A DNA stretch of 64,000 nucleotides from Rhodothermales bacterium (GTDB lineage: Bacteria; Bacteroidota; Rhodothermia; Rhodothermales; VXPQ01). Shown one piece after another: positions 7,512 through 48,186 of the stretch; position 1 is the first letter of the stretch, and each line of letters opens with the position of its first letter. The DNA is taken from contig JBBDTI010000031.1 in the NCBI GenBank assembly GCA_040904565.1, forward strand, positions 9,766-73,765. Reading direction: 5' to 3'. The notes under the pieces were generated by a model. It searched no databases. It was not told the origin of the DNA and saw nothing but the letters and a program-made list of their open reading frames with translations. The position numbers and the translations under genes are program-made.

Positions 7512-9002
7512 ATGGAACGATCCTATTCAGTGGTAGCACGAGCATCTCGCACGACGACGCTCCCGGCGCTCATCGCGTCCGCCTTTCTTGTTTTGCTGCT
7601 TACCGGGTGTTACACCCAGCTGGCCACGGTGGATCGCGGCCCCGACCACGTCGAGGTCGTTCAGGACGGCGAAGAGACGATTGTAACCGAGCACTACTAC
7701 AGTGATCGGTATCTCTATCAGCGACCGTACAGCTACAGCCGCTACTTCGATCGGTTTCACTACGGCTTCTACGATCCGTGGGATCCGTACTCCTACCGTT
7801 ATCGGGATCCGTTCTACTACGATCCCTGGCATTTCAATCCGCACCGCGGGAGCTTCTTCAGCGTTTCGTTCGGGTTCGGATGGGGATATCCGTCCTATAA
7901 TTATTACGACCCGTTCCATTACCGGCCGTACGGGTATTATCCGAGTTATGCGCACGTGACCTACCCGTACTATGGAGGATGGCGATACGATTATCCCGGT
8001 ACCATCAGGCCGCGGGGAAGTGCGTGGCAGCCGCGTGGCGCGACGATGGGGCGCGATGGGTTGACGACCATAGGCCGGGGATCGAGCGTCGGCGGTGGTC
8101 GGTCGTCCGACGGACGCGGAAGCATGGGGCGTGATGCACTGAGCAATTCGCCGGGTACCGATGCGCGCGACGTGCGGCGCGGCGTAGCTCGGGACGCCGG
8201 CGGCTCGTCCGCCGGAACAGGTACGACCTCTCGTACGAATACGGCAAGAGAGACGTCGCGCGATGCATCGAGCAGCGGTACGCGCGGTACGGTCGGGCGC
8301 AGTTCGGATACGCAGCGCGGCAGCACGGCTCGCGGGACCACGCGCGACACCGGTTCGGAGGCCCGTGGGTCTACGGTGACGCGTACGCCGAGCACGCGAG
8401 GCAGCGTGGGTACGACGCCCAGCCGTTCCGGTTCGTCGGGTACGACGCGCAGTTCGGGTACGACCCGCAGCAGCGGCTCGTCGGGTACGACGCGCAGTTC
8501 CGGTACGACGCGCAGCTCTGGGAGCAGCGATAGTCGAGGCACGTCTCGTACGTCGACGAATCGCTCCAGCAGTTCGAGTGTGGGCTCGTCGGCTCCGGGT
8601 GCCCGGAGTACCGGGGTTCCAAATCGAGACGCCGAGCGGTCACCTTATACCCGGACGCGAAGCGGAACGGTGGACCGCTCCGGTTCGTCGGTAGCGCCGC
8701 GACCGACCTCGCCGAATACCGGCGCGTCGAGCACGGATGGTCGGAGGTACACCCCTTCGACCCGTTCGTCGAGCGGCTCATACGATCGCAGCCGATCCTC
8801 GACCACGCGTAGCACGCCGTCGCGTACGGTCCGCTCGCAGCCGAGTCCGCGGTCGGCACCCTCCTATTCCGCACCCCGCTCCAGCGGGAGCAGCGTTCGA
8901 AGCGCTCCGTCGCGGAGCAGCTCGCGCGGAAGCAGTGTCCGCTCCTCGCCGTCGCGCTCCTCTTCACGCAGCACCGGCAGCTCGAGTCGCAGCCGCGACT
9001 GA
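7512..9002 (+). CDS. lipoprotein with aromatic/Pro/Asp-rich module and ~330-aa Arg/Ser/Thr/Gly-rich disordered tail
   Basis: ATG at 7512 is preceded by GGAG. The lipobox is LLLTGC. A Y/F/W/P/D-rich block (YYDPWHFNPHRG..., YNYYDPFHYRPYGYYPSY) is followed by a long RS/T/G low-complexity region that contains tandem repeats. Confidence 0.7.
   Translation: MERSYSVVARASRTTTLPALIASAFLVLLLTGCYTQLATVDRGPDHVEVVQDGEETIVTEHYYSDRYLYQRPYSYSRYFDRFHYGFYDPWDPYSYRYRDPFYYDPWHFNPHRGSFFSVSFGFGWGYPSYNYYDPFHYRPYGYYPSYAHVTYPYYGGWRYDYPGTIRPRGSAWQPRGATMGRDGLTTIGRGSSVGGGRSSDGRGSMGRDALSNSPGTDARDVRRGVARDAGGSSAGTGTTSRTNTARETSRDASSSGTRGTVGRSSDTQRGSTARGTTRDTGSEARGSTVTRTPSTRGSVGTTPSRSGSSGTTRSSGTTRSSGSSGTTRSSGTTRSSGSSDSRGTSRTSTNRSSSSSVGSSAPGARSTGVPNRDAERSPYTRTRSGTVDRSGSSVAPRPTSPNTGASSTDGRRYTPSTRSSSGSYDRSRSSTTRSTPSRTVRSQPSPRSAPSYSAPRSSGSSVRSAPSRSSSRGSSVRSSPSRSSSRSTGSSSRSRD
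8430..8519 (+). repeat. in-frame tandem repeat, 45 nt x2 (GSSGTTRSSGTTRSS x2)
   Basis: ggttcgtcgggtacgacgcgcagttcgggtacgacccgcagcagc is followed by a near-identical copy ggctcgtcgggtacgacgcgcagttccggtacgacgcgcagctct. Each unit contains a GGTACGACNCGCAG subrepeat. Confidence 0.8.
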
Positions 9003-43067: not shown

Positions 43068-43249
43068 TATTTAACGCTTATTGGTTTGCGGTTCGCGCGC
43101 CGCTACGATGCGGCACGTATTATGATGCGGCGACTATTATAATGACAAGCTTCGAGGAAGATGCCGCCGAATGTGGATCTCGATGCCTGCCGGCAAGTTA
43201 CCACACCGTCTCGCCGGGATACCATGCAATCTTCACGAACACCAGTAGA

Positions 43250-43957
43250 ATGGCCGTCACGTTTGGAATCATCGTCTTTCCGGGATCGAATTGCGACCAC
43301 GACGCCTACCACGTCGCAAAGCACGTATTCGATCAAGATGCCCGTTTCATATGGCATAAGGAGGCACAGCTCGGCGACGTCGACGTGGTGATCGTTCCGG
43401 GCGGCTTTTCGTACGGAGATTACCTTCGGTCCGGAGCCATCGCGCGATTTTCTCCGATCTTGCAGGATGTCGTTCGTTTTGCCGAGAAGGGAGGGCTGGT
43501 CTTCGGTATCTGCAACGGGTTCCAGATCCTGTGCGAGGCCGGCCTCCTACCCGGTGCGCTGATGCGCAACGCGGCGCTGCGATTCGCCTGCAAGCAGACG
43601 CACCTGCGCGTCGAGAATGCCGAGACTCCCTTTACGTCTCGGCTCAAAGAGGGGCGCGTGCTGCAAATTCCCATCTCTCACGGGGACGGGAATTATTTTG
43701 CGTCGGATGACGTGCTGGACCGGTTGGAAGAGAATCGTCAGGTCGTCTTTCGTTATGCGGAGGCTGACGGACGCATTACGGAGGAGGCCAATCCGAATGG
43801 GTCGGCCCGAAACATTGCCGGTATCGTCAACGAGGGCCGTAACGTGCTCGGAATGATGCCGCACCCCGATCGCTGTGCGGAGGCGGTGCTCGGCAGCGGC
43901 GACGGACGGTACATCTTCGAATCGATACTCGATCACGTCTCGGCCGTACACGCGTAG
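43250..43957 (+). CDS. purQ: phosphoribosylformylglycinamidine synthase subunit PurQ
   Basis: ATG at 43250 ([18 protein letters not shown]...). The GATase triad context is present: [30 protein letters not shown]. Confidence 0.95.
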
Positions 43958-43989: not shown

Positions 43990-44634
43990 ATGTTCGACTT
44001 CTCGGAAGCGCCGATCACGCTGATCCTGATCCTGGTCAACGTGCTGGTCAGCGGATACGCGTTGTTCTTCGATGAGTCGCTGATCGATCGGCTGGCGTTC
44101 AAGCCGCGGGAGATCCTTCGGCAGGGGCAGTACCGGCGTTTGTTCACGGCCGGATTCGTACACGTAAGCGGATCGCACCTGCTCTTCAACATGATCACGC
44201 TCTATTTCTTCGGGCGTCCGATGGAGCAGTACGTGCTGGGGCCCGGCAAATTTCTGCTGCTCTACGTTGGATCGGAGCTGGCAGCACACGCCCTCTCGCT
44301 TGTCCTGCATCGGGATACGGCGGGATACGCGGCCGTAGGAGCGTCAGGCGCCATCAGCGGCGTCCTCTTCGGATACTGTCTGTTCGCCCCGCTCCAGCCG
44401 ATCTACCTGTTCTTCGTGCCCATCGGCATTCCCGCGGCGCTCTTTGCCGTGGGGTACGTCTTCCTTTCGATGTACGCCATGCGGCGGGGGCGGGAAGGAG
44501 GACGCTCCATGACGGGCGGCATCGCGCATGAGGCGCACCTCGGCGGGGCGTTCGGTGGCCTGTTGCTCACGGTACTGTTAGAGCCGCGCGCCATCTCCAT
44601 CTTTCTCCAGGAACTGAGTCGCATCGGGATGTAG
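43990..44634 (+). CDS. rhomboid family intramembrane serine protease
   Basis: Six TM segments. Motifs: YRRLFTAGFVHVSGSHLLFNM, the catalytic GASGAISG, and AHLGGAFGG. Confidence 0.85.
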   Translation: MFDFSEAPITLILILVNVLVSGYALFFDESLIDRLAFKPREILRQGQYRRLFTAGFVHVSGSHLLFNMITLYFFGRPMEQYVLGPGKFLLLYVGSELAAHALSLVLHRDTAGYAAVGASGAISGVLFGYCLFAPLQPIYLFFVPIGIPAALFAVGYVFLSMYAMRRGREGGRSMTGGIAHEAHLGGAFGGLLLTVLLEPRAISIFLQELSRIGM

Positions 44635-44890
44635 CTCGATCTAAAACCGTTATTGCACACGGCGGTTGACCCATGTATCCAAGGGGTTACGCGAAAAGCA
44701 CCGTTATTGCCACTTGCGATTAGATCGTGGCGGATCTATATTAAGATCACCTCATGCGCCTGGAGACCCATTCACGTGGGGACCATCAGTCGCTTCAACG
44801 TGGGCTTCAAGAAGCTCGGTCTGGTGGGCAGGCCGGGCTTTTTGGTCTCCGGCCCTCGGATGCCCAGCTTGTCAACACGCCGCCGACGTC

Positions 44891-44928
44891 TTGTGGATAT
44901 CGTGTTAGTCAATTGTGGATTAGTCGTG
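44891..44928 (+). repeat. two direct repeats TTGTGGAT(n2-4)TCGTG just upstream of the strong promoter
   Basis: ttgtggatatcgtg (44891-44904) and ttgtggattagtcgtg (44913-44928), with starts 22 bp apart. The repeats end 12 bp before the -35 hexamer at 44940. The core TGTGGAT resembles a DnaA-box core. Confidence 0.5.
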
Positions 44929-44939
44929 GCGCGATTCTC

Positions 44940-44968
44940 TTGACGTGCGCACCCTTCCACGCTATAAT
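44940..44968 (+). promoter_or_regulatory. consensus sigma70-type promoter (TTGACG-17-TATAAT)
   Basis: TTGACG at 44940-44945, an exact 17-nt spacer, and a perfect TATAAT at 44963-44968. No ORF with coding character follows it. Confidence 0.6.
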
Positions 44969-44974
44969 AAGCCC

Positions 44975-46009
44975 AGTGCCTGACGGCACTGTTCCTTGAC
45001 GCGACTGAAAACTCTGGGCTGCATGAGGATGCCCGTGCACTGATCGTAAGATCAGTCAGGAGATGCGGCAATCGAACGGCAGGCGGTGCCGGTTGGTCTG
45101 AAGGGGTTCGCCCTCGCAGGCTTTCTGGAACGGCTGCCGGTTTGGATGCATGCGTATCCATTCGCTCACAGACGCGCTGCTTCGGCAGTTAAGTGTGAGT
45201 CGGGTGGAATCGCCAAGCCTTCTCGTCGTGGACCGTGGCTTCGGCCGCCGGTCCCCTCGGTTTCGGCCTTCGGGTCGGCCGAACGGAAGCGACGGATGGT
45301 GCGCATCAGTCCCGCGCGATGCTATGAAGCGATCGGCTGAAAAGCCGTCTGCGGAGAGCGGCGTTTGTTGATGCAGTGAGCTGGAGGATGTTCGGTGGAG
45401 GCCGGACGCGTGATGAAACCGTCTGTCGAAGGACGACGGTGGAACGTGTCCCGGTCGGTGAAGCCGGTATTCGCCACGTGCTCGCCGAGAGCGGTTTGTG
45501 ACGAAGCGGCCGTACCTTTGGGTGCGACGTGGATCCAACCGCTCGATGACGCGGCCAACCGCTCGCTGCGGAGAACGACGTTCGACGAACCAGGCGGTGC
45601 CGGATCGACTCCGGAGCACGGACGCTCTATGACGCGACGGCAGCAATGCCGCCGCTGAGAGCCGACGTGTGATGAAGGAGTGGATCGGCCAGATCAGCCG
45701 GGCGTGGAGCGCGAGCGAGAAAACTGAACGTGCGGGCAATCAAAGGTCCGTGGCTGCTAAACCGTCTGCCCATGCGGTTTAGACGTATCGCTGCCGGGAA
45801 ACCGACAGCCGTGCGCACGGCCACCAGTGCCGGTCTTCGTACCGGCAGGAGAGTTGGCCTCCCCACCGATGGTAGGTTGCTGTTTCGGCAGCGAACTGCA
45901 TCGAGGGAGGCCGGTCGCGCTGAGGGATAATTACATGGCGCACTCCGGATGCGCCGCACGATTGCACACGATTCTCTGATGCCGCCTGCTCTCGCAGACG
46001 GCATTTTTT
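44975..46009 (+). ncRNA. candidate large (~1.03 kb) structured non-coding RNA of unrecognised family
   Basis: The unit is bounded by the consensus promoter (44940-44968) and an intrinsic terminator (45979-46009), and only junk ORFs occur in all six frames. It has many short perfect hairpins capped by stable tetraloops. UUCG loops: CUGC-UUCG-GCAG 45177-45188, GUGGC-UUCG-GCCGC 45235-45248, GGCC-UUCG-GGUC 45265-45276, GCUGU-UUCG-GCAGC 45879-45892. GNRA loops: ACUGAUC-GUAA-GAUCAGU 45039-45056, CGGCA-GCAA-UGCCG 45638-45651. There is also an 8-bp enclosing helix, GGCCUCCC 45856-45863 paired with GGGAGGCC 45905-45912. The ends are approximate. Confidence 0.45.
45979..46009 (+). terminator. intrinsic (Rho-independent) terminator
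   Basis: AUGCCGCCUGC-UCUC-GCAGACGGCAU forms 10 bp with one C/A mismatch, followed by a U-tract running through 46009. It lies 80 nt upstream of the next gene start at 46090. Confidence 0.7.
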
Positions 46010-46089
46010 ATGACAGGGCTTCCCGTTGGGCGCGGAATGGACATTCCGTTCGCATGTTTCCCTCCATCAGCCGTTAGCTGGTTTTCGGC

Positions 46090-46740
46090 ATGTCCCTCGC
46101 CGCGCGCGTCCACGTCATCGTCGTCAACTACCAGACTCCGGACCTGCTGGATACGGCCGTGCGGTCGTTCGTCGAGCACTACCCGGACGTTCCCCTGCTG
46201 ATCGTCGACAACGGGTCCCGCGACGCGTCACGAGACGTCATCGAGACACTGCATGCTGACCTTGCGAACGTGTCGTCCCTCCAGTTGGAGGAAAACCGCT
46301 ATCACGGGCCGGCCATGGACCTGGCCCTGCGGCACGTAGATGTCGACTACGTGTTTTTGCTGGACAGCGACACGAAGACCATGAGGGGAGGTTTCCTCGA
46401 GGAGATGCTGGCGCGATCCGAGGAGCCGAACGTATACGGTGTCGGAAAGATCGCGGAGGTAAACGAACGTGGATTTGCCGCGACACGGGGCATACCCGTG
46501 CTCGTGAGCGCCTACATGCTCATCGATCGAGAACGCTATCTCGACCTTCCGCCGTTTATTCACCACGGTCTTCCCGCCCTTCAAAACTTTCGCGCGGCGG
46601 CCGAAGCAGGATACCGACTCGAACCCTTTCCCGTAGACGAGTATATCGAGCATTTCGGACGGGGGACGGCCGAGCGGTACGGATACGGGTTGGGCTGGAA
46701 GGGGCGCCTCGATTACCTGCTCAACAAGCTGGGCTTTTAG
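46090..46740 (+). CDS. glycosyltransferase family 2
   Basis: VHVIVVNYQTPDLLDTAVRSF...LLIVDNGSRD...FLLDSDT is the GT-A/GT2 N-terminal pattern with a DxD-like motif. Confidence 0.8.
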   Translation: MSLAARVHVIVVNYQTPDLLDTAVRSFVEHYPDVPLLIVDNGSRDASRDVIETLHADLANVSSLQLEENRYHGPAMDLALRHVDVDYVFLLDSDTKTMRGGFLEEMLARSEEPNVYGVGKIAEVNERGFAATRGIPVLVSAYMLIDRERYLDLPPFIHHGLPALQNFRAAAEAGYRLEPFPVDEYIEHFGRGTAERYGYGLGWKGRLDYLLNKLGF

Positions 46741-46824
46741 GCTTCGCGCGATGACGGCGCTATCGCATGGCGCTACCACATGGCACTATCGCCTTGCGCC
46801 TCTACCGATCGCCGCAGCGGAACA

Positions 46825-48186
46825 TCACCACGGCAAACTCGAGGTCGGGCGGCCTACCACCCCCTCCATTTCGCGGAATTCCTCGGCATACCGTTTCACC
46901 TCGTCACGTTCGATCACACCCCGTTCGGTCGCGTACGCGTCGATGAGGTCTGCCGGCACGCGTTCGAAGATCTCGGTTCTAACATCTACGCGGTCCGACA
47001 CAAGCCCGACGCTGGAACGATCCGCTCGTTCTTGCTCGGCAGCGACATCTCCGAACCGGCCGTCAAGTTCTCGCTTTACGGCGACGTCCTCGGAGCGGTC
47101 GTCACGTTCTTGCTTCTCGGACGCCTCCCCGGAGCGATCCGATTCATTCGTCGCGAGCAGCTTGTCGAGGGCAACCGCTACATAGACAGGCACGCCCCGA
47201 CCGCGTGCGACGAGTGCGGCCAGGCGTGAGCCTACCTTGTTGACGATCGATCCATCGGGGAGCAGGGTATCGCACCCCAGCAGCACGGCATCGAAGGGCG
47301 GTGCCGAAGCCATGGACGCGTCGGGGATGAGCGTCACGTCGAGCCGTGCCCGATCGAGCCGTCGCGCTACCTCCACACCTTCGCCACCCGGAAGCGAGAC
47401 GGCCACGACGACGCGTGCCCGCGTCGACAGGAGTGCATCCAGCACCGTTCCCGAACGGGAGACCGTAAGCACCGTTGCGCCGCCGATGAACTCGGCTGCC
47501 GCACTCGATGCAGCGTGGTCGGACGAAACGGCTTCCCGAAGCACGGTATGAATACACGCGGCCCGTTCGCCGCCGTCCGGCATCGACGTCAGGCACCGAC
47601 GCATCGCACGGTTGATCCGGTTCCGGACGGCTGCCATGGACGGACGAGCAGCGACCAGTTCCTTCGCGAGCGCTCTAATATGAGTCCGGGAGGAGGCCTC
47701 GGCCGCGCGATCGCGGAGAACTTCGAGCGCCCGCAACGACAGGTAGGCCGAACCGTGTTCACGATCCGTTCGCACGTCAGCTACCGACGGCGCGACGGCC
47801 CGGTACGACCGCCACAGCTCCGGAACGGTCGCCCGCTGCAGTATGTCGGGCGGGGCCGCCCATTCCCCCTCGGTCGACTCTTCATTGAGCGCGGGCTGTC
47901 GCCGGCGCCCGTCGAAGAGGTACGGATGCACCGTCCACGCGATGCCGAGTTCTTTGTCTTCGACGGAGAAGGGGTTGCCGCGTCGGACGAGTTCCACGTC
48001 GGTGAACCCCGTTTCCTCTTCGATCTCGCGACGAGCCGCTTCGTCCGGGTCGCCTTCGGCATGCCCGGCTACGGCTCCCCACCTTCCGGGATAGGACCCC
48101 ACCTCGCTGCTGCGTCGCAGCAGCAGGACCTCGGCCTCGGCTCGAACGAAGCACGTTACGACGTGCCTGACTTCAAGATCGACCAT
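46825..48186 (-). CDS. fusion protein: N-terminal NUDIX hydrolase + C-terminal eIF-2B alpha/beta/delta-family (ribose-1,5-bisphosphate / MTR-1-P isomerase-like) domain
   Basis: The N-terminus has a Nudix box, GAVAGHAEGDPDEAARREIEEETG. The remainder matches the IF-2B family layout (ARPSMAAVRN..., TVLTVSRSGTV, LLGCDTLLPDGSIVNKVGS, VPVYVAV, ...FERVPADLIDAYATERGVI), with an acidic insertion before the last strand block. Confidence 0.8.
   Translation of the reverse strand: MVDLEVRHVVTCFVRAEAEVLLLRRSSEVGSYPGRWGAVAGHAEGDPDEAARREIEEETGFTDVELVRRGNPFSVEDKELGIAWTVHPYLFDGRRRQPALNEESTEGEWAAPPDILQRATVPELWRSYRAVAPSVADVRTDREHGSAYLSLRALEVLRDRAAEASSRTHIRALAKELVAARPSMAAVRNRINRAMRRCLTSMPDGGERAACIHTVLREAVSSDHAASSAAAEFIGGATVLTVSRSGTVLDALLSTRARVVVAVSLPGGEGVEVARRLDRARLDVTLIPDASMASAPPFDAVLLGCDTLLPDGSIVNKVGSRLAALVARGRGVPVYVAVALDKLLATNESDRSGEASEKQERDDRSEDVAVKRELDGRFGDVAAEQERADRSSVGLVSDRVDVRTEIFERVPADLIDAYATERGVIERDEVKRYAEEFREMEGVVGRPTSSLPW

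Follow-up and report, generated by a model that had tools for sequence, protein, structure and literature searches.

The gap of 1,455 nt between a rhomboid protease gene and a GT2 glycosyltransferase gene (44635–46089; positions are those of the window, the whole 64,000-nt stretch of Rhodothermales DNA that was analysed) probably holds a stand-alone, strongly transcribed gene for a structured non-coding RNA (ncRNA), and neither a leader nor a decayed gene. As far as comparison of sequences can tell, the RNA is best read as a new Rhodothermales-specific family of large, structured, stand-alone ncRNAs. The features proposed to define this family were all found: a promoter, an invariant 5' domain, a 3' domain, a long-range helix, a terminator and a rhomboid gene upstream. 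The initial annotation had put the gap forward as a candidate for a large structured ncRNA, and the candidate was supported by conservation, structure, the transcription unit and the lack of a match to any known family. To our knowledge, large (>400 nt), conserved and highly expressed bacterial ncRNAs are rare and only few classes of them are known. The classes named alongside them are rRNA, RNase P, tmRNA, SRP, 6S, group II introns, OLE, GOLLD, ROOL and raiA. Earlier classes of large ncRNA tended to expose unusual biology, such as RNA–protein complexes and RNA-only cages. Rhodothermales are thermophiles and halophiles, for example Rhodothermus, Salinibacter and Roseithermus. The locus merits annotation as an ncRNA gene, and neither as an intergenic space without genes nor as a set of spurious, GC-rich open reading frames (ORFs).

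The rhomboid protease gene (43990–44634, plus strand; Pfam PF01694, with GxSG and His motifs) is preceded by purQ (GATase_5; 43142–43957, plus strand), and the GT2 gene (PF00535; 46090–46740, plus strand) starts ∼80 nt past the RNA terminator. The initial annotation had placed the unit between rhomboid and GT2 genes, of which only the upstream one proved constant among relatives. In all of the ∼50 loci, at every informative one, the rhomboid gene was the constant upstream neighbour on the same strand, ending ∼350 nt (range ∼340–460 nt) before the RNA unit. GT2 was not obligatory: it followed in the same direction in about half of the loci, starting 13–110 nt past the RNA terminator, whereas in other families, making up the other half or so, the next gene was a convergent HAD hydrolase gene (PF00702) that faced the RNA. 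It was found that the rhomboid gene occurred in 78 of 81 Rhodothermales genomes, families without the RNA included; its constancy as a neighbour of the RNA is therefore explained by inherited gene order and not by co-occurrence. A functional rhomboid–RNA link by way of co-occurrence was rejected on this ground, and no gene was found to co-occur with the RNA among the genomes of the order.

A sigma-70-type promoter was located at 44940–44968 on the plus strand, with TTGACG as the –35 box (44940–44945), a spacer of 17 nt and TATAAT as the –10 box (44963–44968). It matched 11 of 12 consensus bases and outranked every other candidate in the region, the initial annotation having called it the best match in the window; a promoter scan gave two promoter-like sites against 0.5 ± 0.6 expected by chance. 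The alignment showed that both boxes were almost invariant across Rhodothermales. Transcription would start ∼7 nt past the –10 box, at the A at 44975, which was taken as the transcription start site (TSS), and would stop at an intrinsic terminator ∼1,035 nt from the TSS. At ∼–60 from the TSS, a motif of the type GTGTTAAT..ATTGTGGA (44901–44920, plus strand) was conserved in loci L002–L007, partly in other families and, taken together, in most relatives, and it is possibly a site for a transcription activator. The terminator (45980–46009, plus strand) consisted of a GC-rich hairpin at 45980–46003 followed by U6 at 46004–46009. Its stem had 4 bp, a C·A mismatch and another 3 bp, with the loop CUCUCG, and its folding energy by RNAfold was ∼–16 kcal/mol. 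Because of the C·A mismatch, a simple terminator scan missed it; the terminator claimed earlier at ∼45979–46009 was nevertheless confirmed, and it was conserved in relatives. All relatives had an intrinsic terminator 430–1240 nt past the TSS, and the median RNA length, counted from the TSS to the first strong intrinsic terminator, was ∼780 nt. On the minus-strand reading, the palindromic 5' hairpin CAGUGCC-UGAC-GGCACUG (44974–44991) also scored as terminator-like, which was a palindrome artefact. Another hairpin with the appearance of an intrinsic terminator (44818–44844, plus strand; stem 44818–44839, then TTTTT) lay within a block conserved in the family (44748–44853), and judging by its sequence it probably ends the rhomboid transcript ahead of the RNA's own promoter.

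That the gap contained no credible ORF, as had been claimed, was borne out by several observations. Codon-position periodicity of GC was absent, the values staying flat at ∼0.6 as against a GC3 of ∼0.8 in the flanking genes. In the alignment of family f1, to which the closest relatives belong, the length of 161 out of 181 gap runs was not a multiple of three, and length differences of 1 nt between species were observed even within the invariant 5' core. A decayed or missed protein-coding gene is exceedingly improbable. The only observation in its favour was a set of long, Arg-rich minus-strand ORFs of up to 227 aa (45056–45739, 44772–45161 and 45627–46004). When these were compared among relatives, no conserved start, stop or reading frame was found, and ORF matches occurred only where the DNA itself was conserved. 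They appear to be antisense artefacts typical of GC-rich sequence, which are open to false annotation as proteins. The frameshifting indels throughout ruled out a hidden or decayed gene; the flat codon-position GC and the lack of a shared conserved ORF spoke against it as well, as did the conservation of the promoter, the terminator and the compensatory base pairs.

The RNA unit was single-copy in its own genome, and homologous regions were found across Rhodothermales with promoter and terminator conserved, including 32 of 41 related GTDB genomes. An exact pattern of the conserved core retrieved 38 loci in genome contigs, all of them from Rhodothermales (for example, Roseithermus sacchariphilus MEBiC09517, where the predicted RNA is ∼830 nt long), and 29 further loci in metagenome contigs, and was absent from 2.9 million viral contigs. 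In a sample of 401 genomes drawn from the wider phylum group, the unit was confined to members of Rhodothermales. In total, ∼50 independent loci from named genomes, metagenome-assembled genomes (MAGs) and metagenome contigs carried it, together with a promoter and a terminator of its own. The RNA was ∼1.04 kb long here and 430–1240 nt across Rhodothermales, and the ∼65 nt directly past the TSS were almost invariant throughout the order. A ∼29–30-nt match to the pattern was also observed in a Microthrixaceae MAG (CAWDXF010000002.1, ∼7690–7723) beside an rplL (L7/L12)-like coding sequence. This actinobacterial match had neither the 3' domain nor the rhomboid gene, and was dismissed as a chance partial match.

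The region was compared at ≥80% likeness with contigs from four public environmental RNA-sequencing runs, belonging to three studies (ice, soil and salt lake). A discrete transcript was observed: RNA contigs covered 44966–45941 without reading into GT2, and the coverage began in the 44966–45026 bin, at the predicted TSS. Coverage was zero over the rhomboid end (44600–44965) and on the GT2 side (45942–46400), the missing contigs for the flanking genes being only a weak hint. The evidence for the size and the ends of the transcript comes from relatives, through RNA contigs of environmental samples, and not from the source strain. One run gave 185 aligned pieces at ≥99% identity, which indicated that it contained the source organism itself or one very closely related to it. 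In some RNA contigs the 5' block ran directly into the 3' block, and as many as 673 nt in between were missing, which implied that the RNA of some relatives lacks most of the middle and fitted a variable insertion domain. The RNA contigs ended 40–80 nt short of the terminator, probably because this stretch is poorly conserved across species. The RNA is apparently made in large amounts, and its transcription is probably strong and constitutive; contig depth, however, cannot rank expression. The apparent abundance suggests an important cellular role. The conserved promoter, terminator, synteny and structural core, together with the environmental expression, make the function of the RNA testable in culture.

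Three parts of the RNA could be told apart, all on the plus strand. The 5' domain (44975–45040), which is conserved across Rhodothermales, comprised the TSS, a 5' hairpin and the near-invariant stretch GUUCCUUGACGCGACUGA...GCAUGAGG. The 5' hairpin, GUGCC-UGAC-GGCAC (44976–44990), had a loop that varied and carried insertions in relatives (L010, L014 and L028), the one in L010 being an extra UUCG-capped stem; the 5' stem is thus kept while the loop grows. The middle (45041–45743) differed greatly in length between relatives and contained several UUCG and GNRA hairpins. The third part was the conserved 3' domain (45744–45941), in which the motif GCCCAUGCGG (45768–45777) was conserved as GCCCAU(G/A)CGG. 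The initial annotation had described the interval as rich in hairpins with special tetraloops. All the hairpins that it listed were present, among them UUCG hairpins in the middle at 45176–45187, 45236–45245 and 45264–45275, and GNRA hairpins at 45040–45055 (CUGAUC-GUAA-GAUCAG) and 45638–45651. The enrichment applied to the UUCG loops only: six UUCG-capped stems of at least 3 bp were observed as against 0.31 ± 0.58 in 300 dinucleotide-preserving shuffles, none of which reached six, whereas GNRA-capped stems were not enriched (4 versus 2.8 ± 1.6 in the shuffles). The folding energy was below that of shuffled sequences, with z = –3.3 for the middle and z = –4.8 for the 3' domain.

Helices within the 3' domain and between the two ends were examined in a 48-sequence alignment. 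The nested helix proposed earlier at 45856–45863/45905–45912, enclosing a UUCG hairpin, was recovered as a 9-bp helix of GGCCUCCCC with GGGAGGCC (45856–45864/45905–45912) that showed compensatory changes, being GGCC/GGCC here and AACC/GGUU in another group. The enclosed hairpin, GCUGU-UUCG-GCAGC (45879–45892), was conserved too, and its stem showed CG↔UA double changes, on both sides, in 10–15 of 40 sequences. A 12-bp long-range helix paired 44993–45004 of the 5' domain with 45915–45926 of the 3' domain. In this helix 89.5% of the alignment cells were paired, compared with 37–54% when the partner was shifted by 1–3 columns. Its 5' side was invariant, and its 3' side changed only in ways compatible with pairing (G↔A opposite U, C↔U opposite G). 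A second long-range pairing, AACUCU (45010–45015) with AGAGUU (45850–45855), is proposed; the counterpart in another group, GAGUCUC/GAGACUC, looked compensatory in a 17-sequence subgroup alignment, the comparison across families being made by eye.

The order-wide consensus, obtained from the concatenated 5' and 3' regions of the 48 sequences, had 60 predicted pairs, 26 of them with double changes, and recovered the long-range helix, the 9-bp helix, the UUCG hairpin and the terminator. RNAalifold predicted 128 pairs for a 17-sequence group of another family, and compensatory changes were seen at 41 of them. Covariation was counted with custom scripts and shift controls; the counts are not R-scape E-values, and the relatedness of the sequences inflates them. 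The helices paired consistently, and some of them showed compensatory changes. An alignment of the 3' domain only, also analysed by RNAalifold, recovered just the UUCG hairpin and the terminator, and missed the 9-bp helix because the arms of the helix aligned poorly. When the 5'–3' duplex energy was compared with that of shuffled 3' regions, 44 of 50 z-scores were negative, mostly from –1 to –4. The result was weak and mixed, and the pair counts from the alignments took its place.

No known RNA family accounted for the unit, in agreement with the initial annotation. Rfam cmscan (E ≤ 10) of positions 44000–47000 gave no significant family, the best match being M23 at E = 0.62, below the threshold, and cmscan of 10 diverse relative loci found no known family either. 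With Rfam matching none of them in the region or in the 10 relatives, 6S, tmRNA, RNase P, OLE, GOLLD, ROOL and group II introns were rejected as identities of the RNA. RNase P and tmRNA have genes of their own at other sites of this genome (C13 and C65, respectively). Neither an Rfam intron match nor an RT-like protein that would point to a group II intron or a retron ncRNA was found in the region, and no tRNA was found within 44000–47000. No description of the RNA was found in the literature and in the paper supplements searched, which did not include the 2017 NAR supplement.

Among the possible modes of action, an RNA–protein complex is the one that we tentatively favour, by analogy with known large RNAs. 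With the almost invariant 5' domain and the conserved 3' domain joined by long-range helices around the variable middle, the RNA would work in trans as an abundant structural component to which at least one protein binds, in the manner of OLE; the invariant 5' sequence would then provide either a binding site for protein or a seed. OLE (ornate, large, extremophilic) RNA occurs in Firmicutes and Actinobacteria, is ∼600 nt long and highly expressed, and forms complexes with OapA and OapB. Both RNAs are large, conserved, multi-helix structured ncRNAs of a restricted lineage. However, the Rhodothermales RNA belongs to a different phylum, lacks a match to the OLE model and has a variable middle, and it adjoins rhomboid and GT2 or HAD genes, with no conserved gene for a partner protein close by, whereas OLE genes adjoin genes for OLE-associated proteins. 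It is possible, but rather unlikely, that the RNA is instead a trans-acting base-pairing regulator whose invariant 5' ∼60 nt serve as a seed for target mRNAs, perhaps after processing to a shorter 5' RNA. The invariance of the 5' stretch across the order exceeds what its pairing partner would need, given that the 3' partner varies and the 5' side does not, and the RNA was abundant in the RNA contigs, the depth of which cannot rank expression. Like base-pairing regulatory RNAs, it has an invariant stretch near the 5' end and its own promoter and terminator, and is a candidate for action in trans; but it is far larger and more structured than these, a length of 430–1240 nt and an elaborate conserved 3' domain being atypical of them. 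Moreover, the long-range helix takes up much of the invariant stretch, and a crude target test, which searched the genome for 11-mer complementarity to the 5' domain, found nothing above chance and no targets. It is unlikely that the RNA is catalytic or assembles into RNA-only oligomers, in the way of large RNAs of the GOLLD, ROOL or OLE type, with the 5' and 3' domains as the core and the middle as an expandable insertion domain. GOLLD and ROOL are RNAs of ∼600–800 nt that were found by comparative genomics, form RNA-only oligomers in vitro and are often associated with phages or tRNAs. The Rhodothermales RNA is similar to them in size range and complexity, but it is absent from viral contigs, has a fixed chromosomal synteny and lacks an Rfam match.

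A 6S-like RNA that binds the RNA polymerase holoenzyme as a promoter mimic is still less probable. 6S RNA is ∼180–200 nt long and forms a continuous rod with a central bubble. An abundant transcript, a strong, constitutive sigma-70 promoter and helices between the 5' and 3' ends are shared with 6S and with the 6S-Flavo RNA of Bacteroidetes; also in favour, the Rfam 6S model found no 6S RNA in the organism's own genome. The size of the Rhodothermales RNA makes such a role unlikely, as 430–1240 nt with a middle of up to ∼670 nt contrasts with the short continuous rod, and neither the 6S nor the 6S-Flavo model matched it. Another reading is a long 5' leader of the GT2 mRNA that is regulated by attenuation, the RNA terminator being 80 nt short of the gene; in its favour, a co-directional GT2 start follows the terminator at a distance of 13–110 nt in roughly half of the loci. 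This reading is highly improbable: in many relatives the convergent HAD gene comes next and there is nothing co-directional to regulate, so the RNA unit is not the leader of a downstream gene. The RNA contigs, too, stopped before the terminator and never entered GT2, and the conservation fell on the RNA body itself; the leader or attenuator was rejected on the HAD loci and the contigs. Equally remote as an explanation as the decayed gene is a mobile element or phage remnant, which would fit a large intergenic insertion with a middle of varying length. It was rejected since the unit was absent from the 2.9 million viral contigs and single-copy in each genome; its fixed synteny beside the rhomboid gene across the order and the absence of mobile-element genes nearby also stood against it.

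Two further minus-strand reading frames were observed on the downstream side of the locus. The translation of an antisense ORF inside GT2 (46228–46779) matched relatives at 30–40% identity; this ORF is probably not a real gene and owes its matches to conservation of the sense gene. Beyond it, the frame at 46825–48186 encodes a protein in which an IF-2B-family domain, similar to methylthioribose-1-phosphate isomerase, is fused to a NUDIX domain.
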